Made by a program: the position numbers and the translations under genes
Shown: in pieces, positions 2,408 through 64,000 of the stretch
How the letters are laid out: each line of letters begins with the position of its first letter
Numbering within the stretch: the stretch's first letter is position 1
Assembly (NCBI GenBank): GCA_964597575.1
Contig: CAZQXB010000001.1
Coordinates: forward strand, 594,511-658,510
From: an uncultured Gammaproteobacteria bacterium
GTDB taxonomy: Bacteria; Patescibacteriota; Patescibacteriia; Magasanikbacterales; UBA922
Direction: 5' to 3'
Length of the DNA: 64,000 nt
Notes under the pieces: generated by a model
Told to the model about the DNA's origin: nothing
The model's input: only the letters and a program-made list of their open reading frames with translations
The model's database searches: none

Positions 2408-2410
2408 AAT

Positions 2411-2438
2411 TTGACAGGCTTTTCCAGTGTGCTATAGT
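2411..2438 (+). promoter_or_regulatory. Sigma70-like promoter for clpB (TTGACA-16-TATAGT)
   Basis: TTGACA at 2411-2416 and TATAGT at 2433-2438, read directly from the sequence. Confidence 0.5.
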
Positions 2439-2439
2439 A

Positions 2440-2466
2440 TTATCACTCTAATAACGAGAGTGATAA
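2440..2466 (+). promoter_or_regulatory. CIRCE-like inverted repeat (TTATCACTC-N9-GAGTGATAA), putative HrcA-type heat-shock operator
   Basis: Perfect 9-bp arms separated by 9 nt, located immediately downstream of the clpB -10. The CIRCE consensus is TTAGCACTC-N9-GAGTGCTAA, so there is one symmetric mismatch per arm. Confidence 0.5.
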
Positions 2467-2504
2467 CTTTCCCCTGCTCCTATAATGATTCATTATCTAT
2501 CCGT

Positions 2505-41917: not shown

Positions 41918-44434
41918 CTAAGCAGCTATGGCGATTGGTGTCTGCGGTACAGAGTGTTGAAGAATACTCCTCACATTTCCTTCAATCACCTCTTCCAATT
42001 CACTTGGATTATACCCACGAACGCGACCGAGAAGAGACTCTACTTGACCCCGAGTTCTCGCCGTAATTTCTTTTTTAAATTCTTCGCCAATTTTTTCTTT
42101 CCCTTGTGGCACCATCTCTGGTTTCAAAGTAGCGCCGTCGGTTTGTTTTGCAACATCGCGTACATATGTTCTTTCTTCAAAGCCTTTTTGGTCGGGCGTT
42201 TCTTTTCTCTCTAGCCCAATTTTTTCAGTAGTTTCAAACTTCAACGACACCCCTTCACTTGTGGTTTTTTCAGGAACCGTATGATTCGTGTCTAATTGGT
42301 CTATGTTTTTTTCGGCAACCACAACCTCTTTTACAACAGTTTCTTGTCTTAAAGATACAGAAGGTGAAAACAGCACCGCAGGTTCCGAGGTGGCGGTTCT
42401 TTCCTTATCCGTATTATTCACGATTTCTACTATGCCCACATCTTCCAAAGAAGGCGTTTCAGAAAATTCGACCATCTTTGTAACAGGAATAACTTGAGCT
42501 TTTTCCACAATATCCTTTTCAGTTGCTTCAACTACTTGAGCTACAAACACCTCTTCCATCACGAACACTCCTTCAGAATTATTTTCATAATCCTGAACTT
42601 GGCCAGACTCTTTCTCCACTATTGCTATACCAGATACATCGTCAACAATGGGCAGGTAAGTTTCTTTTCCCACTCCTAGCACCCCAGAAAGAGTAGTGGG
42701 AAGGGAAACAGGAGCCACACTCTCAATATCGGTATCAGTAATTGCCTGCTCCACGAGCCCAATACCAGTTTCCTGCCATACCGCTTGCGCAGTTTCAGCA
42801 AAAGTTTCTTCCTCCGCTACTAAATTTTCTTTTCTCTCAGATACTGTCGTTTCTGTAACAGAAAAAGGGGTAGATTCGATAGAAGCTGAAGAGTTATCTA
42901 CCTCAACCATCGGGAAAACTTCCGTGTCAAAAATAAGTGTTATCGCTTCTGGGGTAGGAGTTGCAGTATTACTTTCTCTCTTAAAATCCGTGACGCGCTC
43001 ATCCCTCTCTACAACTTCCGTATCTCCCTTTTCATGGAAAGAAAAAGTCTCTTCAAAAGAAGTGTCGGCAACCACAATAGACTCTGGGGCAAAATTTTCT
43101 CTTTCGCCCACTGTCATTTTTTTAATATGAAGAGAATTTTCACCTTCTTCAGAACTTGATGCACTTTTTTCTATGTCATCTCTCAGAATAGGGGCCACAT
43201 CTACATAGTGAGAAAAAGAAGACATCTCTGACTCTCCTACCAGACCACGCGAAACATCATATGTTTCTAACTCAATACCAGAAGAGACTTTTATCTCTTT
43301 TGTTTGGAAAGAGGGATCTTCCGGAGTTTGAACTTCTAAAAAAACAGGAACACCTTCTGAAATCTCAAAAGATTGACCTTCCTTTTCAAGGGTAATGCCG
43401 AGCAGCTCCCCCTCTGTTTCATAAACATGCTGAATAACTTCACTGCGTGGGGCATGAACTTGCCGTGCAACATCTCCTAATTCTAGAATCTGAGGAATGA
43501 GTTCATGATTCTCCTCTACAGAAGCCGCCTCGTCTACACCTTCTTGTTCTAATGAAGGGGTGGTAAAAATTTCTTTAGGTAACATTATCGGCGACACCTC
43601 ACCTAAAAAAGGTTGCTCAAATTTTTCAGTTTCAAAAACATGAGATTCTTCAGGCGCAGCAAACATCCGATCAAACCAGGAGTTCTGTTCCTCCGTAGTC
43701 TCTAGATTACCATTCTCGGGTAAGGACAGTTCCACACCCGTGGCGATTACGCCAGATACATCATGGTGCTCTAAAGATTCCTGCCAGATAGGGGTTAAGT
43801 TAAGTTCAATGCCCTGCGTACTTAAATCAACCACCGTTCCATCACCCTCTTCATCAAGCTCGCCATCATTCGCTACCCTCTCCGCAGACACAGGGACATC
43901 ACGAGTAAATCCATACATTGCAATCTTACCATCAGCAGTCACCCACATTTTTGATATATGCCACACCTCTTTATCACCTTTTTGTTCGACATGCTTTCCA
44001 ATATGCTCTGATCTCGGACCCTCCTGAAGGGCCCCCCGCATTCGTTCGTGGTACGCAATCTCCTCGGCTGTACCGGTCTCATGCACACCCTTGGTAACAT
44101 CGTGCTGTGTTCTTGGTACGAATAAATGCCCGGTAGTTGCATCAAACTCCATTTGTCCCACATTGTCAGAAAATTCTACACTCCACTCAGACATCTCCCC
44201 ACCAAACATCGTTCGAATTTCCTCTAAAGCAGATTCCTGAGTGGGAGGAGTATACTCCTCAGAGACGCTAGCTGGCTCTCGTTCATTCTGCAAAGCCAGC
44301 TCTCCAGAATCAGGGGATGCTGGAGGAAGCTCAACTGAATTTGGCGCGCGAAAAGGACTACCCTCACTAGAATTGGGAAATTGATCTTCTTCAGGCTCTT
44401 TTTCAATTCTCTGTTGTCCGTGGAGTTCTCGCAT
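41918..44434 (-). CDS. 838-aa hyper-acidic, low-complexity (E/D/S/T/V-rich) protein with a short globular N-terminal region
   Basis: Acidic residues dominate throughout. There is no TM or signal peptide. Residues ~90-180 (FDATTGHLFVPRTQHD...WHISKMWVTADGKIAMYGF) look globular. It is first in the operon. Confidence 0.6.
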   Translation of the reverse strand: MRELHGQQRIEKEPEEDQFPNSSEGSPFRAPNSVELPPASPDSGELALQNEREPASVSEEYTPPTQESALEEIRTMFGGEMSEWSVEFSDNVGQMEFDATTGHLFVPRTQHDVTKGVHETGTAEEIAYHERMRGALQEGPRSEHIGKHVEQKGDKEVWHISKMWVTADGKIAMYGFTRDVPVSAERVANDGELDEEGDGTVVDLSTQGIELNLTPIWQESLEHHDVSGVIATGVELSLPENGNLETTEEQNSWFDRMFAAPEESHVFETEKFEQPFLGEVSPIMLPKEIFTTPSLEQEGVDEAASVEENHELIPQILELGDVARQVHAPRSEVIQHVYETEGELLGITLEKEGQSFEISEGVPVFLEVQTPEDPSFQTKEIKVSSGIELETYDVSRGLVGESEMSSFSHYVDVAPILRDDIEKSASSSEEGENSLHIKKMTVGERENFAPESIVVADTSFEETFSFHEKGDTEVVERDERVTDFKRESNTATPTPEAITLIFDTEVFPMVEVDNSSASIESTPFSVTETTVSERKENLVAEEETFAETAQAVWQETGIGLVEQAITDTDIESVAPVSLPTTLSGVLGVGKETYLPIVDDVSGIAIVEKESGQVQDYENNSEGVFVMEEVFVAQVVEATEKDIVEKAQVIPVTKMVEFSETPSLEDVGIVEIVNNTDKERTATSEPAVLFSPSVSLRQETVVKEVVVAEKNIDQLDTNHTVPEKTTSEGVSLKFETTEKIGLERKETPDQKGFEERTYVRDVAKQTDGATLKPEMVPQGKEKIGEEFKKEITARTRGQVESLLGRVRGYNPSELEEVIEGNVRSILQHSVPQTPIAIAA

Positions 44435-44705
44435 AATTAAAAACGCACCTCTCCCGAGGTGGTCAAAAAATATACTGAGATAGATATTTCCTGCTCGGGA
44501 TGTCTACACTATTTGGCGATCTGACTCCTTTAGGCTGCCCTAAAGATTACAGTTGCGGCACAGTACCGGAATTTCACCGGACTTCCCCAAATAGCTGCTC
44601 AATTGTGTGTCCATTGTATCTCGCGCATCGAGCGGTGTCAAACGTCCAAATATCACAAAAAAATATTCACTACTGCGTACACTAAAATGGTTATCCACAC
44701 CGTAT

Positions 44706-52916: not shown

Positions 52917-53465
52917 CTACTTATAAAACAACTCATGGCTGCGAAGCTCCTCCTTAATGTCCAAATAATCAGGAAGAGCTTTTGCCACAAGTGCCCAGAA
53001 TTTTCTAGAATGGTTGAATTCTTTGAGATGGCACATTTCGTGAACGATAATATAATCTTGATATTTTGGTGCCAAAAATATAATTTTGTAGTTCAGATTT
53101 AAATTTTGCTTACCTGAACAGCTCCCCCATCGAGTCTTTTGATTTTTAATAAAAATTTTGTTGTATGAAAAACCGTACACTTTATTATAAAACTCAACTC
53201 TTTTCTCTACGAGAGAAAGGGCTTTATCCTTATTTTCTAAATAATCCTTGTGCGAGAAAGTACGAATAGCCTTACTATCCACGCTTTTGAAAAATTGAAT
53301 TTTATCCCACACCCATTGCTTTTTATCAGCAATAAATTTTTCAATCAGCGACAGCTCTACCCCCAAAGGACTGGTAACAACAACACTTCCATCACAATAC
53401 ACCGCAAGGCGCATTCGTTTCGCCCTTTTGCTTCTCTTTAGTTTGTAAGGAATCTTCTTCTCCAT
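52917..53465 (-). CDS. DUF45/YgjP-family zinc metallohydrolase
   Basis: WGSCS ... YIIVHEMCHLKEFNHS (HExxH). Confidence 0.75.
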   Translation of the reverse strand: MEKKIPYKLKRSKRAKRMRLAVYCDGSVVVTSPLGVELSLIEKFIADKKQWVWDKIQFFKSVDSKAIRTFSHKDYLENKDKALSLVEKRVEFYNKVYGFSYNKIFIKNQKTRWGSCSGKQNLNLNYKIIFLAPKYQDYIIVHEMCHLKEFNHSRKFWALVAKALPDYLDIKEELRSHELFYK

Positions 53466-53469
53466 AGTT

Positions 53470-56382
53470 CTAGAATTTCTTCGTGATGATGTCCACCAGT
53501 CTATTCAAGAATTTTGGAAAGTCTTTAAGTACAAATCGACCTTTATAATCTCTCAAAATCAATTCCTGCAAGGTTTGTTTTATATCCTTCACAAACACAT
53601 CCCGCTTTGAGGATTCCTGCCAACCACTATCGAGATCGTCTTCAATACGAATGCGCAACTCTTTTATAAATTCCTTTATCACATCCTCTTTTCCAGCCTC
53701 AACAAACTCTTGAGAAATGACATAGAGCGCGTATTCCTTTAGATCAAGCCCTAGATCCTTCGCCTCGTCTCCTTTCGTCTTGATATCGCTCATCAATTCC
53801 TCATATCGGCGTATTCGTTCGGCAAGGTCAATTTGATTCTGTTCAAACTCACGACGAATAGCGGTTAGCCGTTCGCTAAACTTCTGATACGCCGGATTTT
53901 CATCAAGATTGATAGAGATTTCCTGCTTGAGCATCTTCTCAAGGTTGAGAGCCTTTTCTTCTTCGTCCATTCCCTTGAGGCGTTCAAGCGTGTACAAATC
54001 ATTCACGCGAAGTTCTCTGAAATTCTTGGTGATTCCTTCGTAGTCGATGATATTGCTCTTTTGAATAAGCTCTTTAACTTTCTCCCCATATTCTTCAAGC
54101 AAATAGCGATCATCTTCGCTTCGGAATTCTTTCAAAAATGCCAGGTAAAAACTCGTCACCCATTCAAACGGACGAATATACTGCTTCAGGAATGGATCAG
54201 GCGAAAGAAACTCAAACAAACTCTTGAGCTTCATATACTTCTCAACAAAGTATTTCTGCTTGTCTTGATTATCGATGAAAATCTTGAGACATCGACGAAG
54301 ATTATCCATTGATGGGTCTTCAATATTCACGCCGGTAAATACCTTCATCACATCATTTAAGACATCAGTAAATCGCGCCTTGACTCGCTCAATATCAATC
54401 ATCGCCGAATCAATGACGTCTTCGTCAAAATCTAGAGCATCATAAAGATTCCTCGTAATGCCATAGTAGTCAATAATCTTTCCGGCTTCTTTGTTTTTAT
54501 ATACCCGATTCGTACGCGCAATAGCCTGCAAGAGGTTGTGGTCGCGAAGCGGCTTGTCGAGGTACATCACTTGCTCAATCGGCGCGTCAAAACCAGTGAG
54601 CAACATATCGCACACCAAAAGGAATTTAAGTGATGACTTTGAATCTTTGAATTTCTCAATGATTTGCTCTCGCTCACGTTTGCTCGTGTTGTACACCTTC
54701 AAATCATCCGCATCACTGTTTGGGTCGCCAGGCGAATACACTACCGCCGACCATTCAGCCGGAACCAATTTATCAAGTAGCTTTTTATACGTTGCCACGG
54801 CTTCACGGTCATATGCCACTATTTGCCCCTTAAAGCCGTTTGGCTCCACATAGAGCTTGTAATGCTCCACAATATCCCTTGCCACGGCTTCCATACGCTT
54901 AGGAAGCTTCACGAGCGCTGCTTTCTTACCATACTTCTTCACCAACTCGGTCTTTTGTTTGTCTGACAAATCTCCAGCAATCTCTTCAAACTGTTGATCA
55001 AGCTTTTCTTCATCAATAGAAAACTTTGAAAGACGCGCTTCGTAGGTAACAGGGATAGTCGCCCCGTCATCAATCGCTTGCTGGATAGAGTAGTAGTCCA
55101 AGTATCGCTTCCCATCACCTTCATAATTTCGGAATGTATTGGTATGCGTCTTATCCACCGGCGTTCCAGTGAATCCGAAGAAAAATGCTTTTTTGAACGC
55201 ATTACGCATGTTAATACCCGACACACCCTCGTCCCCTCGATGCGCCTCGTCAGAAAGCACAATCACATTCTCATCAAGATTTTCCACCTTGTCTCCAAGC
55301 TCAGCAAACTTCTGAATGGTCGTAATGAATATGCCTTTCTCCGGTGATTGAATTTTTTCTTCCAAATCTTTGCGCGAAGTGACACGAACAATATTTTTTC
55401 CACCAGCATTGGTAAATGTTTCAAATATTTGATCGTCCAAATCCACGCGGTCAACCAAAATAAATACCTTAGGGTTTTCCAGTTGTTTATTAAACCGTAG
55501 TTTCCATGCCGTGAAATACATCGTGAGCGTCTTGCCTGACCCTTGTGTGTGCCAAATAAGCCCTTGTCGTTTCTCTTTACTTACAACACGCTCAACAATT
55601 TTATTCGTCGCACGCATTTGCTGATAACGAGCAATTTTCTTCACCAATTTCTCCTTCTCTTTTTCAAATAAAATGAAATTTTGCACGATATCCAAAAAAT
55701 TCTCTTTAGAAAGAAGTGAGAAAAGCGACATCTCCAACTCTCCACCAAGCTCTTTTTCCATGTCTTCGTCGCGCCACTGGAGGAAGTATTGCTTTGGCGC
55801 GCCGGTTGCACCGTACACCGTTTTGAGCCCGTCGCTCGCGATATTGAAGCAGTTGGGAATAAACAACTTGCGAGCTACTTTTTCGTATCGCTTTATCTGG
55901 TCAATACCATTTTCAAAACTCACACCCTCCGAAGCCGTCGGGCTTTTGGCCTCAATATCTACAAGCGGAAGCCCGTTTACGAAAATCATAATATCCTGAC
56001 GTATGTTTTCCGTATCCCCCTCAAAATAGAATTGATTAGTAACAACAAATTGATTGTTTTCTGGATTATCGAAATCTACGATTTTATAATCGCGAAATAA
56101 TCCCGTTGCAGAATCTTTGAGGTTTATACCGTTACGAATTGCGTCAAGAAAAATTTGATTTGAGTCAATTTTATTTACTTCACGCAAAATACTTTTGGCG
56201 ACAGTATCATCAACGCTGTTTATTCTTTTAATAGCATCAAGTAATTGTGGTTTGATAGTATACTCACTCTCCAAATCACGGAGTTTGGCAAATTCCTCTG
56301 GTTTTATGTATTCAAAACCAAGCTTATCTTTAATAAACCTGATGATGTAATTTTCTACTGTAACTTGTTCATTGAATTTCAT
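53470..56382 (-). CDS. hsdR: Type I restriction enzyme R subunit
   Basis: ATG at 56382 (MKFNEQV), an N-terminal nuclease region, helicase motifs (QGSGKTLT, VLSDEAHR) and a C-terminal helical domain. The track ORF starts at an upstream TTG. Confidence 0.9.
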   Translation of the reverse strand: MKFNEQVTVENYIIRFIKDKLGFEYIKPEEFAKLRDLESEYTIKPQLLDAIKRINSVDDTVAKSILREVNKIDSNQIFLDAIRNGINLKDSATGLFRDYKIVDFDNPENNQFVVTNQFYFEGDTENIRQDIMIFVNGLPLVDIEAKSPTASEGVSFENGIDQIKRYEKVARKLFIPNCFNIASDGLKTVYGATGAPKQYFLQWRDEDMEKELGGELEMSLFSLLSKENFLDIVQNFILFEKEKEKLVKKIARYQQMRATNKIVERVVSKEKRQGLIWHTQGSGKTLTMYFTAWKLRFNKQLENPKVFILVDRVDLDDQIFETFTNAGGKNIVRVTSRKDLEEKIQSPEKGIFITTIQKFAELGDKVENLDENVIVLSDEAHRGDEGVSGINMRNAFKKAFFFGFTGTPVDKTHTNTFRNYEGDGKRYLDYYSIQQAIDDGATIPVTYEARLSKFSIDEEKLDQQFEEIAGDLSDKQKTELVKKYGKKAALVKLPKRMEAVARDIVEHYKLYVEPNGFKGQIVAYDREAVATYKKLLDKLVPAEWSAVVYSPGDPNSDADDLKVYNTSKREREQIIEKFKDSKSSLKFLLVCDMLLTGFDAPIEQVMYLDKPLRDHNLLQAIARTNRVYKNKEAGKIIDYYGITRNLYDALDFDEDVIDSAMIDIERVKARFTDVLNDVMKVFTGVNIEDPSMDNLRRCLKIFIDNQDKQKYFVEKYMKLKSLFEFLSPDPFLKQYIRPFEWVTSFYLAFLKEFRSEDDRYLLEEYGEKVKELIQKSNIIDYEGITKNFRELRVNDLYTLERLKGMDEEEKALNLEKMLKQEISINLDENPAYQKFSERLTAIRREFEQNQIDLAERIRRYEELMSDIKTKGDEAKDLGLDLKEYALYVISQEFVEAGKEDVIKEFIKELRIRIEDDLDSGWQESSKRDVFVKDIKQTLQELILRDYKGRFVLKDFPKFLNRLVDIITKKF

Positions 56383-56389
56383 AGTATTA

Positions 56390-57571
56390 CTATGGTTTTT
56401 TGTCCAAGTTCGCCACAAACCCTTCTTTTGATAAAATTTCTACAATCCCTCGCAAAAGATAGTTGTTTGCAAAAGCCACTGTATAAATCCTACCGTTTTC
56501 TTTGAGCGGCATGACCATCTTTTTTTCTTTCAACTTCGAGATAATACGAGACCTTTGCACTGATGAATCCTCATTCAACACCTTCTCCAAATCGCCGGCT
56601 TTTACTTGCATATCTTTTTGAGAGATTATAAATGTCAGAATCTTATATTCTCGATCAGTAATCCATTTATTCTCAAGAGAAAAACTAAAAACTGGTAACA
56701 AAATACTATTGATCAAATAATTTTGATCAAGCAATTTATCTATTTTTTCAATTTCAGCCTTTAGACCCGAGAATACATATTCGCACCATGCGATTGTTTT
56801 TTCTTGTTCTCCAGTATCCGCACCGGCAAGCATATCGTAATATTTTTGCCTATCCATACAAAACATTGCTGTTGGGTTCAAAATCGAACCCGTCTTCACC
56901 TGAAACCCCTGCTTAATGAGCATGGCATAGGTTAGTAACCGCACCAAACGGCCATTTCCATTATCAAACGGGTGAATCCAAGCAAAACGATGGTGTGCCA
57001 GTGCCATAACTAAGAGGTCATTCGCTTTTTCAGTCTTTTGATTTACAAAAGAAAGTAGTTCGTCAAAATAATTTGGTACTTGCAGGTATTCAGGTAAGAC
57101 AACCGAAGACCCTGTAATTTCAGGATTTACATTTCGAAGTTCACCGGGCCGCGCTGAACCTTCTCCTTCTGGTGGTGGAGTAAGATCTTTCGTTATGATT
57201 TTATGCACTTCTGATAAAATAGCCCTACTGATCTCGGTATCTTCTTTAATAGTCTTATGCAAAAATTGCAAAGCATTTTCAATATTATCAATTTCTCTAG
57301 AGCTTTCGTCTGTACGGGTTTTTCCTTGAATTTTTTTCTCCACGAATTCCGCCAGTGTTGTACGATTACCTTCTATTCGTGCCGAACCCAAACTTTCTAG
57401 TATATGAAAAATATCTTTCAATTGAAAAAAGATGTACGGTGGCACACCCACGCTAAAAATCCGTTTAGTGCGTAGTTCTTCAAGCTCAAAAATCAAAGTG
57501 GCAAGACGCGAGTTCCACTCTGGTTTTATAAGCTTAAGCGGTATTTCTTTGAATTCTCGTGTATTTTTCAT
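56390..57571 (-). CDS. Fic/DOC-family protein (AMPylase-like) with C-terminal winged-helix
   Basis: Fic motif HPFDNGNGRLVRLL. Confidence 0.85.
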   Translation of the reverse strand: MKNTREFKEIPLKLIKPEWNSRLATLIFELEELRTKRIFSVGVPPYIFFQLKDIFHILESLGSARIEGNRTTLAEFVEKKIQGKTRTDESSREIDNIENALQFLHKTIKEDTEISRAILSEVHKIITKDLTPPPEGEGSARPGELRNVNPEITGSSVVLPEYLQVPNYFDELLSFVNQKTEKANDLLVMALAHHRFAWIHPFDNGNGRLVRLLTYAMLIKQGFQVKTGSILNPTAMFCMDRQKYYDMLAGADTGEQEKTIAWCEYVFSGLKAEIEKIDKLLDQNYLINSILLPVFSFSLENKWITDREYKILTFIISQKDMQVKAGDLEKVLNEDSSVQRSRIISKLKEKKMVMPLKENGRIYTVAFANNYLLRGIVEILSKEGFVANLDKKP

Positions 57572-57708
57572 AAATTGATGATAGCATTATTTACAACATA
57601 CTACAATACTATTTAACATATACACATACAAAAGCCTTATTTTAAGCTATTTTATTACATATACTCTGTAGTATTATTTAACATTTCTCTAATAATGATT
57701 TAACATAT

Positions 57709-59013
57709 TCATGGGATCATTTTCCCAATCGCAGCAAGATGATCAGTTCTCACTTGTCCGCTTAATAAGTCTTGCATCAGGCCTTTTTTGAGGAGAGTAA
57801 ATTTTTCTTTTAATTTTTTATTGACCAAAATCTTTTCATCGACTGCGGAAAGAATTTCCGCAATTTCTTTTTGTTCATCTTCTGTTGGAATCGGGATATA
57901 TACCTGCTCCAAGCTTCCTATAGGCAACTGGGGCTGAGCTGAGCCGGAGACGATTTCTTTATACTTTCGCTTCAACATATCACTCTTCATTAAATGATAT
58001 AGGAAGACTGCCTCGACGCCGTCAAAAGCTCTTAATAAAACCATGCCTGAATTAATTCTTATATTTTCGAAGGTAACATTTTTATCGTAATAAGCAACGT
58101 TTCCTACGGTACCTCTCGTGGTCAACACAACATCTTCCCTTTGAAGCCTTCCCTTTCTTAACGCTTGATCCTTTTCTCTTGATATGAACTGCAATTCGTT
58201 AAATAAAAACTTATCGTCTTTAATGTTCTTATTATTCAGGAACAGACAATAACCCCCACTTGTGAGATAGGGGTCAATAAAATCATGGCCGTGTGGGTAA
58301 TTAACACCGCGATCACCATCAATTATTTCTATAGGTGCATCTTTTAACTTTAAAACCTCCCACTCTTGAGGAATCTGCCCGATTTTTGTTTCTTTAAATT
58401 TTGTATGCCCAATCCCGCGAGTAAAGAGCTGTTGCATCAGTCCGCGTTTGAGTTTTTCTGTCGTCTCAATCACTTCCTGCGTTTTCGCGATATCCTCATC
58501 CACCACACCTAAAATCTCTGCAATCTTTTGCTGTTCTTTGATTGGAGGAATAAGAACTTCAATTTGAGTTTTTATTACAGATGGTCGCACCTCCTTTATG
58601 GTGCTACCAGAGGAAAGTTTGTGCAGAAGATTTTTCTTACTTAGAAGTAAATAATACAAATAAGTATTAAGAAGGTCATCATTTGGTATAATCCCCGCAA
58701 TTCCTTGCTTTGTAGTAACAGGAACATCCGCAATACCAACTTCGCCAATAGTAGCCCCGAACGACAGGATTACGCTTCCAGTCGGCCACAGTTTTGCAGA
58801 TGATTTTTGGAGACCTTCATCCGTAAGTGTGTCCTTTGTTTGTTTAATATGTGGTTTTATATCATTAACCACAACCCAAGGAATCTTGCCGCCAAAATAT
58901 TCATCTTTTGAACGCAAAGGTGTCCCTCCATCACCAATATCAGCGAGAAAATTGCCCAATTCTCCAAATTTCCATCCATTCGGAATATTCTGTTGCGTTT
59001 TAGTGATTGGCAT
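57709..59013 (-). CDS. hsdS: Type I R-M specificity subunit with two target-recognition domains
   Basis: Two TRD-like halves separated and followed by conserved coiled-coil spacers (LKRGLMQQLF / LKKGLMQDLL). The ATG is at 59013. Confidence 0.85.
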   Translation of the reverse strand: MPITKTQQNIPNGWKFGELGNFLADIGDGGTPLRSKDEYFGGKIPWVVVNDIKPHIKQTKDTLTDEGLQKSSAKLWPTGSVILSFGATIGEVGIADVPVTTKQGIAGIIPNDDLLNTYLYYLLLSKKNLLHKLSSGSTIKEVRPSVIKTQIEVLIPPIKEQQKIAEILGVVDEDIAKTQEVIETTEKLKRGLMQQLFTRGIGHTKFKETKIGQIPQEWEVLKLKDAPIEIIDGDRGVNYPHGHDFIDPYLTSGGYCLFLNNKNIKDDKFLFNELQFISREKDQALRKGRLQREDVVLTTRGTVGNVAYYDKNVTFENIRINSGMVLLRAFDGVEAVFLYHLMKSDMLKRKYKEIVSGSAQPQLPIGSLEQVYIPIPTEDEQKEIAEILSAVDEKILVNKKLKEKFTLLKKGLMQDLLSGQVRTDHLAAIGKMIP

Positions 59014-59677
59014 ATTCTTCAATTAACTTTCTCGCGTATGCACGACCAAAATATTTTATGACAACAAACCCGAAACATAGGTACAGACCGTAGCCGATCA
59101 AACAGATTACTCCAACGGTGCGCAGCAGACTCAATGGCTCGGAAAGAAAAATAAGAAGTAGTGACCCGAAAATTCCGCTCAAAGAAGCTCCCCAGAGGTT
59201 TCTGACGAATCCATACTCGATATTATGTTGAAGTACCAAGTAGCCATCTTTTACCTTCCCGATTATCACGCGGATGGAATCCTTGATTCGCTTACGCGCA
59301 TCTTTTTCGTTCTTGTGTTCGTCATCTGCGGTTGGCAGCTGAATTGATAAATCTCTTTTGACCGCCTGACGGATCTGGTCTTTAAACTCGCTCGAATATT
59401 CATCATCAGAGTACATAAGGAAGCTTGTTGTTGGAAAATAAAGTTGCTTCTTAAACAAAAAGTCCTCAAAAATTTTACTCGGTATGCGAACAAAATACTG
59501 GTTGAAGGTATAAAGTAGAATGGTTGACAGCCCAACATTTCCGACAGCAGAAGCGATTAAGGAATCAATATTCCAGATGTTGTTGAGGTAAAAATATTGA
59601 AAAACAAACCACGGAATAAGTCCGATGATAGTCGGAAAGATTCTCGCTATGAGGTTGTAAGTGGAGAATATTTTCAT
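59000..59677 (-). CDS. Hypothetical 4-TM membrane protein embedded in the R-M operon
   Basis: 225 aa with two N-terminal and two C-terminal TM helices around a charged cytoplasmic middle. The gap to the upstream gene is 2 nt, and it overlaps hsdS by 14 nt. Confidence 0.5.
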   Translation of the reverse strand: MKIFSTYNLIARIFPTIIGLIPWFVFQYFYLNNIWNIDSLIASAVGNVGLSTILLYTFNQYFVRIPSKIFEDFLFKKQLYFPTTSFLMYSDDEYSSEFKDQIRQAVKRDLSIQLPTADDEHKNEKDARKRIKDSIRVIIGKVKDGYLVLQHNIEYGFVRNLWGASLSGIFGSLLLIFLSEPLSLLRTVGVICLIGYGLYLCFGFVVIKYFGRAYARKLIEEYANH

Positions 59678-59679
59678 AT

Positions 59680-60534
59680 CTATACAGCGAGTGTGTCGTA
59701 TGAGCGAGTACCGTCCGCTCCAAATTCAATAAGAATATGCCCGTCACTACGGGTAGTGAGCACTTTTCTCGTACTTCCTCCAAAATTTACCCCGTCTCCT
59801 AATACATGACCTGCATATTTCTGTGCCATACCTCCTTGTGTGTCATACATTATGTCTTTATCGGAAATCACCACGACCTCTGGAAAGCAATTCTCGAAAA
59901 TTGATTCGTGATATCCATTATCCCTTCCGTGATGCGGGGCAATAAGTACATCTGTTGAAAGCATGTGCGTTTTCACCGCATCTTTTTGAAGAATCTTTTC
60001 CCAAGCCACTCGCTCTAAATCACCAGCGACACAGAGCTTTGATCCTCCAAACTCCACAAAGAGCATTTGACTAAGGTGATTCGTGTTAAGATCTCCATCC
60101 AAATCACTTTGTTCTAGGTGATAAGAATGGGTTGTGTACACAGGAGTGAAATCAACAGCGTTGCCCGTGTAAGTGTCTTTCAGATGGCACACATGTTGGA
60201 GCGCAAAAGTGATTTCATCCTTGTGATTCTTCAGTTCCTGACTAGTGATATTTTTTGGAAGTCGAGTAGTCCATATATCAACTTTCTTTCTTAGGTCTGG
60301 CAACCATGAAAAATGGTCATGGTCGTAGTTTGTGATAGTTAGGTTACCCAAACGAGGTTTTCCGTTTGCGTTCTTTGGAAGTATATTTTTTGAGACTATA
60401 AATTCCACCGGAGAGAATCCTTCGCTTTCACCACCGCAATCTATAAGTCGTGCATGGCTAGGTTGTTCATTAGGGAAAACCAATATAGATTGTGCCGCAC
60501 CAACATCAAACACCGCAATTTGTAATTTACTCAT
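59680..60534 (-). CDS. Metallo-beta-lactamase-fold hydrolase embedded in the R-M operon
   Basis: LIDCGG, NYDHDHF (HxHxDH-like), APHHG and ISDKD. Confidence 0.65.
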   Translation of the reverse strand: MSKLQIAVFDVGAAQSILVFPNEQPSHARLIDCGGESEGFSPVEFIVSKNILPKNANGKPRLGNLTITNYDHDHFSWLPDLRKKVDIWTTRLPKNITSQELKNHKDEITFALQHVCHLKDTYTGNAVDFTPVYTTHSYHLEQSDLDGDLNTNHLSQMLFVEFGGSKLCVAGDLERVAWEKILQKDAVKTHMLSTDVLIAPHHGRDNGYHESIFENCFPEVVVISDKDIMYDTQGGMAQKYAGHVLGDGVNFGGSTRKVLTTRSDGHILIEFGADGTRSYDTLAV

Positions 60535-60536
60535 AT

Positions 60537-62222
60537 TTAATATTTTAATTCTGATAAATAATTAGCGACCTTTTTATCAATTGCTTCGCGGGTTTTTTCA
60601 ATCTCCCTCACTTCACTCCACACCGTTTTTACATCCACCACCTCTTCATCTTCGCCATTTTCTACATAGCGACGTACGTTGAGATTGAACTCGTTTTCTT
60701 CGAGCTCCTTAATATCCACCACGCGAGCGTATTTTTCAATATCTCGGTAGCTTTCAAATGCTGACACCATTTTCTCGATATCCTTCTTGCGTAGGCGGTT
60801 TTGATTTTTTCCTTCCTCGTAATCTTGCTCGGCATCAATGATAAGGATTTTATCCTTATGATTCTCTGGCTTGTTTTTGTTGAATATCACAATTGCCGCC
60901 GGAATACCTGTACCATAGAAAAGTTTTGCAGGAAGAGCGATAATGGCTTCTATAAGATCGTTCTTGATAAGTTCCTCACGGATACGACCTTCGGCACCTC
61001 CACGGAAAAGCACGCCATGCGGAAGCACGATGCCGGCGCGGCCGTTTTCGTTCATTGACTTCACCATGTGGAGCACAAAAGCGTAGTCGGCTTTTTTTGC
61101 CGGAGGCATTTCGTAGCCCGCCACTCGTCCATGTTTGTCATTCTTGAATATCTCATACTCCCACTCGCTTATGGAGTAAGGCGGATTGGCAACACAAATA
61201 TCAAATGTCTTGAGCGAGCCGTCAGGATTGAGAAACTTTGGATCAGCAAGTGTATCTCCGCGTTGAATGTTGGCACTATCAAGTCCATGGAGGAACATGT
61301 TGATTTTCGCAATCGCGTATGTCCCGATGTTTATTTCCTGTCCGTAGAGGTAGAGTGAGCGAGCTTTCTTTTCTCCTGCGCTCAGTCTGAGATGGTGATA
61401 GGCCTCCAAGAGGAAACCACCCGAGCCGACCGCCATGTCGTAGATGTGGTCTTTCTCGTGGGGCTTAAGGATACTGACGATCACACGCTCAACTTCCCGC
61501 GGAGTATAAAATGATCCTCCTTTTTTTCCGGCGTCCGCGGCGAACTGCGCAATTAAATACTCGTAAGCATCGCCAAGTAAATCAGTGCTTATGTAATTGT
61601 CACCAAAATTATACTTAGAAAAATGATTGATTAACTTTTGCAGAACCTCGTTTGGAAATTTGTCTTTGTTGGCAAAATCAAGGTCATCAAAAATCTTGTC
61701 CAGCTTCGGACTGTTGGCATTGGTTAGCTTATCAAAAATTTCGTTGAGCTTGTGGCCGATACCTTCGGCTTGTTTTTGTATGACTTCCCATCGACATTCC
61801 TTTGGAACCTGAAACTTGTGATTGTGATCCGCCTTGGCTATTTCTTCATCATGATATTCCTCAAGAATTTTTTTGTATTCTTCGTCCCACACATCACTAA
61901 TTCGTTTATAGAAAAGAAGACCAAAAATATATTTTTTATAATCTGCACTATCTATTCTGTCGCGCAAAATATCTGCACTACTCCAAAGGAATTGCTTAAG
62001 CTGTGTTAGGTCCATTTTTCCTTCATCATCAGTCAGTGGCGCACCGAGATCTTTGACAATGCTTTTGTCATTAGCTATTTTTTCCAAATCTTCAGGACGA
62101 TATTTTCTGTCACCACGGGGACCAACACGCATAGGAGTAATCAAACCTTTTTTCTCCCAATTCCTCAATGTGTCTTTATCTAGACCAAAAATCTTTGCCA
62201 CCTCACTAATCGAAAGTAACAT
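60537..62222 (-). CDS. hsdM: Type I R-M N6-adenine DNA methyltransferase with N-terminal MerR/excisionase-type HTH fusion
   Basis: N-terminal ISEVAKIFGLDKDTLRNWEKKGLITP (HTH_17-like), then an HsdM_N-like helical region, the AdoMet motif DMAVGSGGFL and the catalytic NPPY (VANPPYS). Confidence 0.9.
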   Translation of the reverse strand: MLLSISEVAKIFGLDKDTLRNWEKKGLITPMRVGPRGDRKYRPEDLEKIANDKSIVKDLGAPLTDDEGKMDLTQLKQFLWSSADILRDRIDSADYKKYIFGLLFYKRISDVWDEEYKKILEEYHDEEIAKADHNHKFQVPKECRWEVIQKQAEGIGHKLNEIFDKLTNANSPKLDKIFDDLDFANKDKFPNEVLQKLINHFSKYNFGDNYISTDLLGDAYEYLIAQFAADAGKKGGSFYTPREVERVIVSILKPHEKDHIYDMAVGSGGFLLEAYHHLRLSAGEKKARSLYLYGQEINIGTYAIAKINMFLHGLDSANIQRGDTLADPKFLNPDGSLKTFDICVANPPYSISEWEYEIFKNDKHGRVAGYEMPPAKKADYAFVLHMVKSMNENGRAGIVLPHGVLFRGGAEGRIREELIKNDLIEAIIALPAKLFYGTGIPAAIVIFNKNKPENHKDKILIIDAEQDYEEGKNQNRLRKKDIEKMVSAFESYRDIEKYARVVDIKELEENEFNLNVRRYVENGEDEEVVDVKTVWSEVREIEKTREAIDKKVANYLSELKY

Positions 62223-62405
62223 ACTTTATATACTATCTTTTTAATATTTCATATGTTATCATAGGTTCATTGTTTCCGTCAAACTTTTTACAAAAATTCA
62301 TAAGTTTTCATAGGTTAGAGGGTTTTTACCTCTTGCCATCCTCCGCCCCACTGAGGTGGGAACCTTCCGGTTCCCAAACCCCTGTTCGAATCCACTCTAC
62401 CCAAA

Positions 62406-62443
62406 AATTATATAAGAGCACCATGAGGCGCTCTTATATAATT
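62406..62443. repeat. Palindromic element copy 2: aattatataagagc-accatgaggc-gctcttatataatt
   Basis: 14-bp perfect arms with the same ATAAGAGC core and CAAAAA / TTGCGG flanks as copy 1. Confidence 0.75.
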
Positions 62444-62950
62444 GCGGTGTGTATTGGACGAAGTTCGAATGTATTTCGGGAAAAATCCGCAGGATTTTGA
62501 CTGATTCGCACGCGCGGAGCGCGTGGTGGCTTTGACCCAAATCGTACGCTCCGATTGCCTGGTGAAGCGAACCAATGCGCCTCGGACACGCTCGCGGACT
62601 CGCGTGTGCAAAAGCCAAAAAAATTTCCTTGCATTTTTCTCGCGTCTCCTCCCCCCACCCCTCCGCCGCGAAGCGGAAAAAGAAATGGAAAGGAAATTTT
62701 TTGGTTTTGCTTCGCCGTTTCAGTCTCCAAAAAGAGCATCTCTATTTTATCACTTTTGATATGCTCTTTTCTCTGCCTTCACGGCGACCGAGGCGCACCT
62801 CCTATCCGCGTTCGGTGGTAACTCGGTACTCCGCGAACCACGCACAAGTGCCTACGCATAGCCCGCTCGCATTCGCTCGCGCTGGCTGCTTCGGCATTGT
62901 GCGTGTTCGCTCGGTGGCTTCGTTGGAGTAGGTGGTAACTCTAAAAAGAA

Positions 62951-62970
62951 GTTTGTGCTAAAGCACAAAC
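62951..62970 (-). terminator. Rho-independent terminator (gtttgtgc-taaa-gcacaaac, then U-tract on minus strand)
   Basis: A perfect 8-bp stem. The rc of 62941-62950 is TTCTTTTTAG. Confidence 0.55.
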
Positions 62971-63016
62971 AAATCTCTATGTGCTTGCCCCACCCACCCA
63001 GTGCGCGCACAGAAAA

Positions 63017-63036
63017 CCACCTGCTGACGCAGGTGG
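63017..63036 (-). terminator. Rho-independent terminator for the cupredoxin-like gene (ccacctgc-tgac-gcaggtgg, then TTTTCTGT)
   Basis: A perfect 8-bp stem 12 nt after the stop at 63049. The two terminators lie in tandem. Confidence 0.65.
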
Positions 63037-63048
63037 CTCCCTTGAAAA

Positions 63049-63450
63049 CTAACTCGATTTAATTTGAAAATTGTACATTCCCATTCCGCACACACCCTGT
63101 ATTTTTTCGCCAGATTTTGGAGTGCCAAGGTCAATCACTTCTTCGCCAGATGGTTGTAATATTTTTTGAAAACCTGTCGAGCGGATAACGAGTGATGCAG
63201 AGCAATCGTATGTGCCGTTTGTCTTTACAATAAGTTTTGTAGGTAGGTTCGGTTGTATAATCGATTGGCGTGGCGAGTACCCACCCTTCGCATCCACGGT
63301 GACATATTGCACACCGTCTTTTACTTCAACATTTTGAGATTGCGAGACAGCACCATTTTCGGAAGAAGTAGGTTTTTCAGACACAAAATACAGCGTTCCA
63401 CCAATGATAACGATGCTGATGATAATGGAAATGATTGTGTTCTTTTGCAT
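63049..63450 (-). CDS. Membrane-anchored cupredoxin-like (Cupredoxin_1-type) protein
   Basis: N-terminal TM, a beta-sandwich-like domain with Cys (YDCSASL) and C-terminal GVCGMGMY. Confidence 0.45.
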   Translation of the reverse strand: MQKNTIISIIISIVIIGGTLYFVSEKPTSSENGAVSQSQNVEVKDGVQYVTVDAKGGYSPRQSIIQPNLPTKLIVKTNGTYDCSASLVIRSTGFQKILQPSGEEVIDLGTPKSGEKIQGVCGMGMYNFQIKSS

Positions 63451-63468
63451 AGAGATTAACTAGTAAAA

Positions 63469-64000
63469 TTATACATTAAATAACGGGTTGATAATACCAA
63501 GCCCCGCAAGCCCAGCGAGAAGCGCAAAAATTCCAAGACCGATAACAACCACTCCCGCAGATTTGAAAAAGAGCGGAGCATATTTTGATTGAGCAATCGA
63601 AGCAGAGCCGAAAGATAGAAGTGCGAGCATTGGAAGCGTACCGAGCGCGAATGCGGTCATAATGAGTAGGCCCGACAAGAATGAACCGCTTGATAGAGCC
63701 GCAACCTGCATCGCCTGAGTGAAGCCACAAGGCAAGAAGAAAGTCCCGACACCGACAAGAAATGGAGCGATGGTTTTGTGTTCTACCTTACGGAAAAAGC
63801 TAAATACACCAGATGGCAAAGCAATCACGTTTTTCTTAAACAAACCTACGAGATTAAGCCCGAGCACGATCATCACGACGGATGCAAGGATTCCAAGTAT
63901 CGCCGTGAGGGTAAAACTTATGCCGATCGCGCTTCCAATGGTACCGAGCATCCCACCGAGCACCGCAAAACTCACTAATCGCCCTCCGTGGAAAAGCATC
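63469..64000 (-). CDS. Polytopic membrane protein (DsbD_2/CcdA-like), probably N-terminally truncated by the window end
   Basis: Multiple TM helices and FLPCGF. It is paired with a cupredoxin-like gene, as is often seen for DsbD_2 proteins. Confidence 0.45.
   Translation of the reverse strand, partial: MLFHGGRLVSFAVLGGMLGTIGSAIGISFTLTAILGILASVVMIVLGLNLVGLFKKNVIALPSGVFSFFRKVEHKTIAPFLVGVGTFFLPCGFTQAMQVAALSSGSFLSGLLIMTAFALGTLPMLALLSFGSASIAQSKYAPLFFKSAGVVVIGLGIFALLAGLAGLGIINPLFNV

Follow-up and report, generated by a model that had tools for sequence, protein, structure and literature searches.

A predicted ComEC-type MBL nuclease and a Csx27-like 4-TM membrane protein nested between hsdM and hsdS: a candidate defence module carried within a type I restriction-modification operon

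PrrC of EcoprrI, a defence effector, is encoded within a type I restriction-modification (R-M) operon, and the cI-rexA-rexB operon of lambda encodes, along with a repressor, the 4-TM protein RexB and a cytoplasmic partner expressed with it. More directly comparable to the genes considered here is PDC-M48 (cassette CAS_00157, FAM_01875>>FAM_00178), a predicted defence candidate that emerged from a guilt-by-embedding screen, its definition resting on genes found inside BREX, DISARM or type I R-M systems (Payne, Hughes, Fineran and Jackson 2024, bioRxiv 10.1101/2024.01.29.577857). In the outline given by Makarova, Gao, Zhang and Koonin (2019, FEMS Microbiol Lett 366:fnz088), the Csx27-like 4-TM superfamily is linked to ComEC-like, ubiquitin-like and DNA-modification genes. 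A third described system, 6A-MBL, represented in NCBIfam by NF058524 and NF058523, is reported to act against phages (van den Berg et al. 2024, Cell Host Microbe).

The window analysed here, a stretch of 64,000 nucleotides, bears on its minus strand a type I R-M operon in which an MBL-fold gene and a 4-TM gene lie between hsdM and hsdS. The genes, in their order on that strand, are as follows:

60537-62222, minus strand: hsdM, type I methyltransferase and first gene of the operon (561 aa; MerR/HTH_17, HsdM_N and N6_Mtase domains)
59680-60534, minus strand: MBL-fold gene (284 aa; PADLOC PDC-M48B)
59000-59677, minus strand: 4-TM gene, predicted inner-membrane protein (225 aa; putatively placed by profile searches in the Csx27-like superfamily, branch c1)
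57709-59013, minus strand: hsdS, specificity subunit (434 aa from the ATG of the public gene call)
56390-57571, minus strand: Fic-domain gene, SoFic-like, in the hsdS/hsdR slot (393 aa; Pfam Fic 7.1e-16; PADLOC SoFic 3.3e-42)
53470-56382, minus strand: hsdR, restriction/translocase subunit (970 aa in the public gene call; 982 aa from an upstream TTG)
52917-53414, minus strand: YgjP-like zinc peptidase gene, after hsdR (Pfam YgjP-like 1.4e-43)

These coordinates agree with the original prediction, which had placed hsdM, MBL, 4-TM, hsdS, Fic and hsdR in that order on one strand; the YgjP-like gene follows. The genes hsdM, hsdS and hsdR all have Pfam and PADLOC matches and are intact, full-length and co-oriented. 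HsdM combines N6_Mtase (2.3e-108), HsdM_N (4.4e-27) and N-terminal MerR_1 (2.3e-12) domains and matches PADLOC MTase_I at 3.6e-142; HsdS has two target-recognition domains, with Methylase_S (3.8e-44) matched in two stretches; and HsdR contains HSDR_N, SWI2_SNF2, ResIII, T1R_D3-like and T1RH-like_C domains. The tight coupling ascribed beforehand to the first four genes is also evident on reading the sequence. The hsdM/MBL junction is TAA-AT-ATG and the MBL/4-TM junction TAG-AT-ATG, each leaving a 2-nt gap, and hsdS begins with an ATG 14 nt before the 4-TM gene ends, giving a 14-nt overlap (the ORF list offers an alternative TTG start for hsdS upstream, at 59022). A pattern scan of the region for hairpin-plus-T sites yielded 18, against 8.7 expected, several of them weak and inside coding sequences; none falls at a gene junction, and one weak example with a 5-bp stem (59753-59740) lies within the 3'-terminal part of the MBL gene. 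A search of the GC-rich gap upstream of hsdM revealed no tRNA or known RNA gene.

Both inserted genes are genuine and under strong purifying selection. A word search returned more than 335 homologues of the MBL protein and 93 of the 4-TM protein, and a full profile scan with the latter gave 2151 clusters at 50% identity. Relative to three homologous loci, non-synonymous differences amount to 0.09-0.36 per site, compared to synonymous differences of 0.75-0.93, which are saturated; there is therefore no sign of the pseudogene-like decay that had been named as counting against the prediction.

By sequence and by modelled structure, the MBL protein is predicted to be a cytoplasmic metal-dependent nuclease. 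It matches PADLOC PDC-M48B (PDLC04674) at 8.7e-25 over residues 4-269 of its 284 aa, and a profile of its family recovers ComEC chains from the PDB (2.8e-7 for 9vcb). The AF2 model (pLDDT 94.1) finds its best Foldseek match in 9ic4, a ComEC beta-lactamase-like domain (E 8.6e-14, TM 0.70/0.75). Residues D32, N69, D71, D73, H74, D172, H201, H202 and G203 are invariant across 100 homologues, the metal site reading NxDxDH / GD / HHG and covering MBL motifs 1, 2, 4 and 5. The HPDADH of ComEC aligns to the invariant NYDHDH of the MBL protein, with GD172 and HHG201-203 conserved too. Where the ComEC motif has His as its first metal ligand, the MBL family has an invariant Asn, so its chemistry may differ. 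No TM segment or signal peptide was found in the protein, whose N-terminus forms beta-strand 1 of the fold in the AF2 model; the MBL domain of ComEC is thought to work outside the cytoplasm.

The metallo-hydrolase had originally been proposed to be a nuclease or a cyclic-nucleotide phosphodiesterase. The first of these is favoured, the ComEC nuclease domain being the top match in both sequence and structure searches, and we infer nuclease activity with DNA as the substrate. The second was set aside: in Foldseek comparisons the cyclic-nucleotide phosphodiesterase, RNase J and CPSF folds match far worse than ComEC. The runner-up for the MBL model is the pneumococcal phosphorylcholine esterase Pce (E 4e-10), with the phosphodiesterases YhfI and tw9814 likewise matched. 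When a defence role was weighed, the Asn ligand, the place of Pce as second structural match and the lack of an export signal, unlike ComEC, were counted against it.

Hydropathy and the AF2 model (pLDDT 90.4) agree with the earlier description of the partner as a 4-TM protein, both giving two TM helices, a helical insert of ~100 aa and two further TM helices. The charge distribution fits an N-in/C-in topology, in which the insert would be cytoplasmic. Across 40 homologues Y7, R12, P15, P82, Y155-G-F-x-R159-N160 and Y214 are invariant. Searches of the protein against Pfam, PADLOC (even at E <= 10), NCBIfam and PHROGs gave no match. Its family, c1, aligns in hhalign to family c26 over the full length (93%, 3e-7) and to c8 (86%, 5e-6), and an iterative HMM search starting from c1 picks up both c8 and c26. 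The PADLOC Csx27 model is matched by 7 of the 23 members of the joint c1+c8+c26 alignment (best 2.8e-9), with matches in the sister families c8 and c26 and the window's own protein giving no direct match to that model. Four predicted TM helices in 225 aa are within the range of the Csx27-like superfamily (about 160-250 aa). Partner family c7 is the equivalent of PDC-M48A (4.5e-65 in L009); hhalign ties c7 weakly to c8 (55%) and not to c1. Taken transitively, these profile and iterative searches would place the window's 4-TM protein in the Csx27-like superfamily, as a sister branch to PDC-M48A. One relative has its 4-TM domain fused to a PNP_UDP_1 domain, PNP being another enzyme type reused in defence systems. 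A Rosetta-stone fusion of MBL and 4-TM was also sought and none was found, the long 'MBL' ORFs of GC-rich loci being start-codon artefacts.

The pairing of the MBL protein with a 4-TM partner is conserved and co-inherited across phyla. A same-strand adjacent partner (families c1, c2, c7, c8, c26 and c28) is present in 54 of the 72 loci with a called MBL gene, and 7 further partners recovered from the raw ORF table bring the total to about 61 paired loci out of 79; these figures come from a locus sample seeded with the MBL protein, not an unbiased census, and since gene calling with a greedy ORF caller went wrong at some GC-rich loci (L065-L074), the adjacency counts are lower bounds. The partner may lie upstream or downstream of the MBL gene, at gaps of -4 to +15 nt, and pairwise identities of MBL protein and partner correlate with r = 0.80 (20 loci). 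The partner families are interchangeable, since MBL proteins 53-60% identical to that of the window are accompanied by c26 (L024/L098) or by c7, that is PDC-M48A (L097). The two proteins may form a physical complex.

How far the pair belongs to a named system, which the original prediction had not recognised it as doing, can now be stated more closely: the MBL protein is PDC-M48B and the 4-TM protein would be a member of the Csx27-like superfamily, and to that extent the claim needs qualifying, but the partner does lie outside the PDC-M48A models. In common with PDC-M48, the window has two genes, a small 4-TM protein together with the same MBL family, and a type I operon in L097 contains a true PDC-M48A partner together with an MBL protein that shares 60% identity with that of the window. 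The differences are that the window partner (225 aa, with its insert of ~100 aa) matches no PDC-M48A model, and that its gene order is MBL then 4-TM, whereas in PDC-M48 A precedes B. Assignment of the window pair as canonical PDC-M48 was considered and rejected on the failure of the partner to match any PDC-M48A model, and PADLOC would probably not call PDC-M48 at the locus. The window pair represents a variant on a kind of system already predicted by computation and is not categorically new. That the embedding screen of Payne et al. had independently picked out the MBL family, as PDC-M48, was counted in favour of a defence role.

As regards the Csx27-like superfamily, associations with ComEC-like, ubiquitin-like E2/E1/JAB and DNA-modification genes were all recovered independently here. 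In contrast to type VI-B1 Csx27, however, the window pair is flanked by hsdM and hsdS, with no adjoining cas13b or CRISPR context. The 6A-MBL enzyme is a paralogue within the cluster of the window MBL protein, but the window pair corresponds to the accessory small MBL and 4-TM genes and not to those that define 6A-MBL. Assignment of the pair to 6A-MBL was rejected: the window MBL protein scores 19.3 bits against NF058524 (E 4.8e-4, partial), for which the cut-off is 220 and a true member (L062) reaches 399 bits, and domains of an NF058523-type E2-E1-JAB protein (Prok-E2, ThiF and JAB) were not found in the operon genes from 52917 to 62222. In 6A-MBL operons NF058524 (1e-119) and NF058523 (2e-204) precede a small MBL gene and a 4-TM gene at gaps of 1-13 nt, and at about 16 of the 79 loci, as well as on plasmid L090, a small MBL and 4-TM pair, 30-35% identical, lies directly after or beside the 6A-MBL enzyme and E2-E1-JAB. 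Functional analogies might also be drawn with PrrC, as an effector nested in a type I operon, and with RexB, whose repressor operon parallels cassettes of lexA, MBL and 4-TM genes, but PrrC, RexA and RexB are not known to have sequence or fold similarity to the window pair.

In all nine distinct loci examined (eleven locus records) with MBL identity to the window protein of 60% or more, the gene is nested in a type I R-M operon. Recurrence of homologous pairs next to hsdM/hsdS had been proposed as a check, and they do recur there, with defence and mobile-element contexts elsewhere. The order hsdM-MBL-(MBL2)-4TM-hsdS is found in the window and in L001, L002, L083, L085, L087, L095 and L096, and the module is instead at the hsdS/hsdR position in L097, L024/L098 and L033. 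Several of the R-M-embedded loci are 26-39% identical to the window in HsdM and 28-34% in HsdR, for MBL proteins 53-68% identical.

On balance we favour interpretation of the pair as a mobile two-gene, membrane-anchored nuclease module with a candidate anti-phage or anti-plasmid function that would add to restriction. The sensor/effector or abortive-infection module first envisaged stands as far as association with R-M and defence genes goes, and the defence role itself would be read from that association. Such a module would be self-contained and horizontally mobile, consisting of a cytoplasmic ComEC-type MBL nuclease and an inner-membrane 4-TM protein of the Csx27 superfamily, in which the conserved helical domain on the cytoplasmic side probably serves to dock the enzyme at the membrane or to gate it there. 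It is nested in the hsdM-hsdS transcription unit and so would be produced along with the modification and specificity subunits. The membrane-anchored nuclease might cut DNA on cell entry; alternatively, the 4-TM partner might sense infection and let the nuclease go as an effector. More ambitiously, and as a tentative possibility only, the pair could be a stand-alone immune module with a mechanism new to validated defence, the 4-TM protein positioning or gating the nuclease so that DNA is destroyed at entry or infection is aborted. The window clade would then be obligately wired into hsdM-hsdS as a second layer acting with, or guarding, the methyltransferase complex, and the effector arm would be common to PDC-M48, many 6A-MBL operons and the LexA cassettes.

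The consistency of the embedding can be read differently, as a guard arrangement like that of PrrC in which the methyltransferase/specificity complex keeps the pair inactive until a phage anti-restriction protein disables the R-M enzyme and so unleashes it on nucleic acid or membrane. Every context examined with an MBL protein at least 60% identical being inside a type I operon, the exact placement of eight loci (window included) at the hsdM/hsdS junction despite very different R-M lineages, and the translational coupling of the pair to hsdM and hsdS would all be consistent with this. We nevertheless judge it unlikely: the MBL-4TM family is also common at sites lacking type I genes out to 8 kb, behind LexA, in Tn7-like cargo or in 6A-MBL operons; the insertion site differs, being M/S in some loci and S/R in others; and neither protein is known to have sequence similarity to PrrC.

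The competence protein ComEC/Rec2 was compared as well. The window enzyme and ComEC belong to a common MBL subfamily (NxDxDH / HxDxDH, GD, PHHG), ComEC is the best solved-structure match, and the overall logic of a membrane component with an MBL nuclease is the same. The window MBL protein differs from ComEC/Rec2 in having no channel domain (PF03772; no Competence or DUF4131 match) or OB fold, it scores 23 bits against TIGR00361, where the cut-off is 190, and it is a separate, single-domain soluble protein without an export signal and with no competence genes nearby. As a second alternative, the pair might be a DNA uptake-and-degradation device, in which the 4-TM protein provides an ssDNA channel and the ComEC-like enzyme processes or degrades what is imported, for nutrition or control of transformation and not for immunity; the closest relatives of the enzyme are ComEC nuclease domains, and a hypothesis of this kind is reported for Csx27-family operons. 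It appears improbable.

Contexts unrelated to R-M or defence had been named beforehand as telling against the module. Besides R-M, the contexts found are defence or mobile elements, the departure being LexA, frequent in one clade, which is neither R-M nor classical defence and had not been foreseen. Distant relatives adjoin SduA_C (Shedu), HaeII and BamHI type II R-M, a TIR protein and OLD/AAA_15, and others occur in Tn7-like cargo, on plasmids, or with serine recombinases and terminase-like genes nearby. A search of 50,697 phage records gave 1 weak match to the MBL gene and a phage origin was rejected; its near absence from isolated phage genomes was counted against a defence role. Among the 79 genome-scan loci, 14 have a LexA-type repressor beside the pair, as do L092 and L093; often it shares the strand of the pair, separated by 4-12 nt or overlapping, and 8 of the 9 neighbours tested pass the TIGR00498 LexA equivalog cut-off. 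That these neighbours could point to a DNA-damage response was also counted against defence.

Together with the Tn7-like cargo, plasmids, serine recombinase and terminase-like neighbours, the LexA genes would suit an SOS-controlled or mobile-element maintenance module, either a damage-induced nuclease with its membrane partner, serving programmed growth arrest, cell death or DNA processing, or an addiction cassette that stabilises its carrier elements, having no direct anti-phage role. We consider there to be little chance of this: LexA is lacking at the locus of the pair and in the whole close clade, which is seated in constitutive R-M operons. Damage-sensing repressors also control bona fide defence systems, as with CapH/CapP and BrxR/CapW, and an SOS reading therefore overlaps with defence and does not exclude it. 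It is hardly probable, finally, that the MBL protein, instead of being a nuclease, works as a phosphodiesterase or esterase and has as substrate a small molecule, a cyclic nucleotide signal or a membrane or envelope phosphodiester, with the 4-TM protein presenting the substrate or serving as regulated partner: Pce, YhfI and tw9814 as structural runners-up and the invariant Asn in place of the first His of the canonical motif would agree with it, but the ComEC nuclease domain is the clear top match by sequence profile and by structure, and the NxDxDH, GD and HHG pattern is that of the ComEC subfamily, the wider MBL superfamily having HxHxDH as its canonical motif.

If the pair is, as we favour, a working defence module, it would provide a function for a widespread, experimentally uncharacterised family (the 2151 4-TM clusters at 50% identity) and would join PDC-M48, the 6A-MBL accessory genes and the Csx27 family known from type VI-B CRISPR loci, which are now separately listed. 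It would also mean that a competence-type nuclease fold had been recruited to membrane-level immunity. That the whole clade is nested between hsdM and hsdS of unrelated type I systems makes for a natural experiment on embedding, setting co-regulation against functional coupling. Should the pair prove ordinary, it is still a well-documented case of embedded cargo and exposes a gap in the PADLOC models, which leave the c1 partner family uncovered.

The Fic gene is a second embedded cargo gene of the operon; in the related locus L083 the slot between hsdS and hsdR is filled by a 219-aa gene unrelated to Fic. The YgjP-like gene is the usual last gene of these type I loci, occupying the equivalent place in L080, L083, L087 and L096.

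The type I restriction-modification operon is complete in the window, on the minus strand, and the genes of concern here are as follows.

60537-62222, minus strand: hsdM, with a MerR-type HTH at the N-terminus
59680-60534, minus strand: MBL-like ORF, 284 aa
59000-59677, minus strand: 4-TM ORF, 225 aa
57709-59013, minus strand: hsdS
56390-57571, minus strand: Fic, SoFic-like
53470-56382, minus strand: hsdR
52917-53414, minus strand: YgjP-like peptidase

Read directly from the sequence, the hsdM/MBL junction is TAA-AT-ATG and the MBL/4-TM junction TAG-AT-ATG, while the ATG of hsdS lies 14 nt within the 4-TM gene. A pattern scan found no hairpin-plus-T sites at the gene junctions of the operon, the weak ones present all lying within coding sequence. 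The original prediction, which described a pair of MBL and 4-TM genes between hsdM and hsdS on the same strand and with gaps of at most 2 nt or overlaps, is therefore accurate, and the pair itself is confirmed by the sequence. By word-index search the MBL protein has over 335 homologues and the 4-TM protein 93; when 1.84 billion representatives were scanned in full with the 4-TM profile, 2151 clusters matched at E <= 1e-3, of which 303 reached E <= 1e-30. Both inserted genes are real and maintained: pseudogene-like decay, which had been named as a possible objection, does not apply, as non-synonymous differences from the homologous loci L001, L083 and L002 amount to 0.09-0.36 per site against saturated synonymous sites (0.75-0.93).

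Residues 1-51 of HsdM form a MerR/HTH_17 DNA-binding domain. The related locus L083 encodes this HTH region on its own, in an ORF of 138 aa that precedes an HsdM of 442 aa; the domain may have an autoregulatory, C-protein-like function, or else L083 may carry a frameshift. The Fic gene, in the slot between hsdS and hsdR, matches PADLOC SoFic (3.3e-42) and is a second, independent cargo embedded in the operon; the equivalent slot of L083 holds an unrelated 219-aa gene without a Pfam match.

On balance, we lean towards reading the pair as a membrane-anchored nuclease module acting against foreign DNA or infection. The 4-TM protein would tether a cytoplasmic nuclease of the ComEC type to the inner membrane and control it, the putative complex would target incoming foreign DNA or serve as an infection-triggered effector, and the module would thus form a second layer on top of the co-expressed type I system.

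Pairing was assessed in a genome scan using one genome per species, which gave 79 loci with an MBL relative. ORF clustering across these loci nearly always places beside the MBL gene, on the same strand and at a distance of -4 to +15 nt, a gene whose product has 160-250 aa and 3-4 TM helices. In the close clade this partner is downstream; distant clades have it on either side. A conservative gene caller detected a 4-TM-type partner in 54 of 72 loci, with 7 more in the raw ORF table. MBL proteins and their partners vary together in identity (r = 0.80 over 20 loci), the pattern that inheritance as a unit would give. By BLAST the partners form clusters c1 (that of the window), c2, c7, c8, c26 and c28. 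MBL proteins 53-60% identical to that of the window pair with c26 or c7, not c1, and the partner families therefore look functionally interchangeable, one of the features of most interest here. In L007 a cassette of MBL (287 aa), 4-TM (210 aa) and a second MBL (330 aa) occurs twice in tandem on one contig (4113-6606 and 9150-11643); a second MBL paralogue also lies beside the pair in L010, L093 and L095.

Of similar interest is the clade-wide nesting of the pair in unrelated type I operons. Wherever the MBL protein is at least 60% identical to that of the window, every context examined has it nested in a type I operon. The order hsdM-MBL-4TM-hsdS recurs in L001, L002, L083, L085, L087 and L096, and in L095 with an inserted second MBL paralogue; L097 reads hsdM-hsdS-PDC-M48A-MBL-Abi_C-hsdR, and L024/L098, with an MBL 53% identical, hsdS-MBL-4TM-hsdR. 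Between the window and L002, L085 and L087 the MBL proteins are 67-68% identical, compared with only 26-39% for HsdM and ~28-30% for HsdR. The cassette thus accompanies several distinct type I lineages and occupies two insertion points. Some remoter members, too, are found within or close to type I genes (L033, L042, L051, L062 and the plasmid loci L089 and L090). The original proposal of embedded, defence-type cargo gains support from these comparisons. A PrrC-like guard tied to the restriction-modification complex, the strongest rival, would also fit the nesting; the sharing of the pair among restriction-modification, LexA-controlled and 6A-MBL contexts, again of most interest, makes it the less probable reading.

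Peptidase_S24 (12) and LexA_DNA_bind (8) are the most frequent families among 124 neighbours in the clade at 39-55% identity; N6_N4 methylases and large serine recombinases come next, with single occurrences of BamHI, TdeIII, SAVED, TrwB and MobC. The LexA equivalog cut-off was exceeded by 8 of the 9 repressors tested, and these LexA-type repressors usually lie directly upstream of the MBL gene, on the same strand and abutting it. Such lexA-MBL-4TM cassettes are present in 14 of the 79 genome-scan loci (including L010, L011, L012, L014, L017 and L018), as well as in L092 and L093. In L092 a Tn7-like transposon carries the lexA-MBL-...-4TM set as cargo, next to a type IIG enzyme. A function in the SOS response or in maintenance of mobile elements, which these cassettes would suit, seems improbable for the pair. 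The module also occurs in defence islands, where its neighbours include SduA_C (Shedu) and a serine recombinase in L091, HaeII restriction-modification genes and Vsr in L093, and a CAP12/PCTIR TIR protein with OLD/AAA_15 in L094. In several Patescibacteria the lexA-MBL-4TM cassette and a set of methylase and terminase-like genes are divergently oriented, with a large serine recombinase close to the cassette.

At ~16 loci the 6A-MBL enzyme (NF058524, 1e-119) and the E2-E1-JAB protein (NF058523, 2e-204) are followed or flanked by a 30-35% identical pair of small MBL and 4-TM genes, with gaps of 1-13 nt to the 6A-MBL genes. On a Sphingobium conjugative plasmid the same four genes adjoin a type I system. 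6A-MBL, from Pseudomonas aeruginosa, is listed among the validated anti-phage systems. Across the type I, LexA, defence-island, 6A-MBL and fusion contexts no competence, metabolic or housekeeping partner recurs; a tie to competence or metabolic genes, which the original prediction regarded as evidence against it, is thus not seen in the contexts examined. A device for DNA uptake and degradation, to which the likeness to ComEC might point, appears improbable.

Library searches with the MBL protein gave a marginal Pfam match (Lactamase_B, E 0.038), a match to PADLOC PDC-M48B (8.7e-25) and, in NCBIfam, only weak, partial matches to ComEC/Rec2 and the 6A-MBL enzyme. A profile of 100 homologues matched the MBL domains of solved ComEC structures (9vcb, 2.8e-7; 9ic4, 3.4e-4), and the AlphaFold model (pLDDT 94.1) is closest among solved structures to the 9ic4 ComEC beta-lactamase-like domain (Foldseek E 8.6e-14, TM 0.70/0.75). 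The profile alignment sets ComEC T-H-P-D-A-D-H against T-N-Y-D-H-D-H of the MBL protein, GD/AD against G171-D172 and PHHGS against PHHGR. Residues N69, D71, D73, H74, D172, H201, H202 and G203 are invariant in 100 of 100 sequences, and the NxDxDH form is kept in the remotest relatives (TNYDEDH, TNADQDH). The protein has neither a TM helix nor a signal peptide, its N-terminus being the first strand of the fold. We infer a cytoplasmic, metal-dependent phosphodiesterase, most probably a nuclease resembling the ComEC domain, itself an established nuclease. A non-nuclease esterase, recalling the phosphorylcholine esterase Pce that ranks second to 9ic4 and ahead of the RNase J, CPSF73 and RNase Z folds, is an improbable alternative. 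The MBL family reaches haloarchaeal plasmids at ~29% identity, in L089 (Haloplanus aerogenes), where ~5 kb separate the gene from type I hsdR and a SprT/YgjP-like peptidase, and in H4 (Halobacterium sp. DL1).

For the 4-TM protein, no model matched in Pfam, PADLOC (to E <= 10), NCBIfam or PHROGs, and no resembling structure was found among solved or viral structures. Its own model is confident (pLDDT 90.4), with two TM helices, a helical insert at approximately residues 62-160 and two further TM helices. Lys and Arg abound in the insert and C-terminus but not in the short loops, so the topology is probably N-in/C-in with a cytoplasmic insert. Forty homologues share invariant Y7, R12, P15 and P82, the last inside an FPTT motif, a striking LQHNIEYGFVRN motif directly ahead of TM3 and a C-terminal YA..L..EY motif.

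Cluster c7 corresponds to PADLOC PDC-M48A (4.5e-65), and the PADLOC Csx27 model was matched in a first scan by c8 (2.9e-7) and c26 (1.2e-3), and by 7 of the 23 members of a joint c1, c8 and c26 alignment (best 2.8e-9). By hhalign, c1 matches c26 at 93% (E 3e-7, full length) and c8 at 86%; c8 and c26 match at 97%, c7 and c8 weakly at 55%, and c2 and c28 gave no links. An iterative HMM search seeded with the window's family recruited c26 and then c8, and the joint alignment retains an N-terminal Tyr and a Y-G-F-x-R-N motif. Judging by these alignments, the window's 4-TM protein probably forms a divergent lineage within the Csx27-like 4-TM superfamily. In the 500-aa metagenomic protein P0389 an N-terminal PNP_UDP_1 domain (nucleoside phosphorylase superfamily) is fused to a complete 4-TM domain of the window's family, which suggests that defence-type enzymes of other kinds can use the membrane module; PNP is listed among the domains that recur across defence systems.

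The pair is no categorically new system and is a variant of a predicted family (PDC-M48, or Csx27-like plus ComEC-like). PDC-M48 belongs to a set of 145 'phage defence candidates' drawn from genes found inside BREX, DISARM and type I systems; it is a predicted cassette FAM_01875>>FAM_00178 with 63 homologues, FAM_00178 being found with another partner family too (Payne et al. 2024, bioRxiv 10.1101/2024.01.29.577857). The window's MBL protein matches the B family, whereas its c1 partner branch is missed by current PADLOC models. By its title and the summaries in two citing papers, Makarova et al. 2019 linked the Csx27 family through comparative genomics to ComEC-like, ubiquitin-like and DNA-modification genes, and proposed Csx27 proteins as ssDNA channels; the present analysis recovered these gene links independently.

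Elsewhere in the window, 63049-63999 holds a cupredoxin-like gene (Pfam Cupredoxin_1) and, beside it, a multi-pass membrane ORF, across a GC-rich gap from hsdM. In L087, DsbD_2 and Cupredoxin_1 genes (1695-3108) lie a few kb upstream of the hsdM-MBL-4TM operon; by this comparison we would guess the membrane ORF to be DsbD_2-like, and the likeness of the two neighbourhoods may come from synteny kept in related organisms or from an insertion region common to them. The gap between the hsdM start and the cupredoxin-like gene (62250-63040, ~800 nt) is ORF-poor, contains hairpins and has a GC content of 0.47-0.54 against ~0.40 around it. No tRNA or tmRNA was found there and, even at relaxed thresholds, no Rfam family; possible explanations are an unknown RNA, a decayed gene and the scar of an insertion. 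The sole Rfam match in the window is an AdoCbl-II (cobalamin) riboswitch at 44506-44605 on the minus strand, upstream of an 838-aa ORF at 41918-44434.
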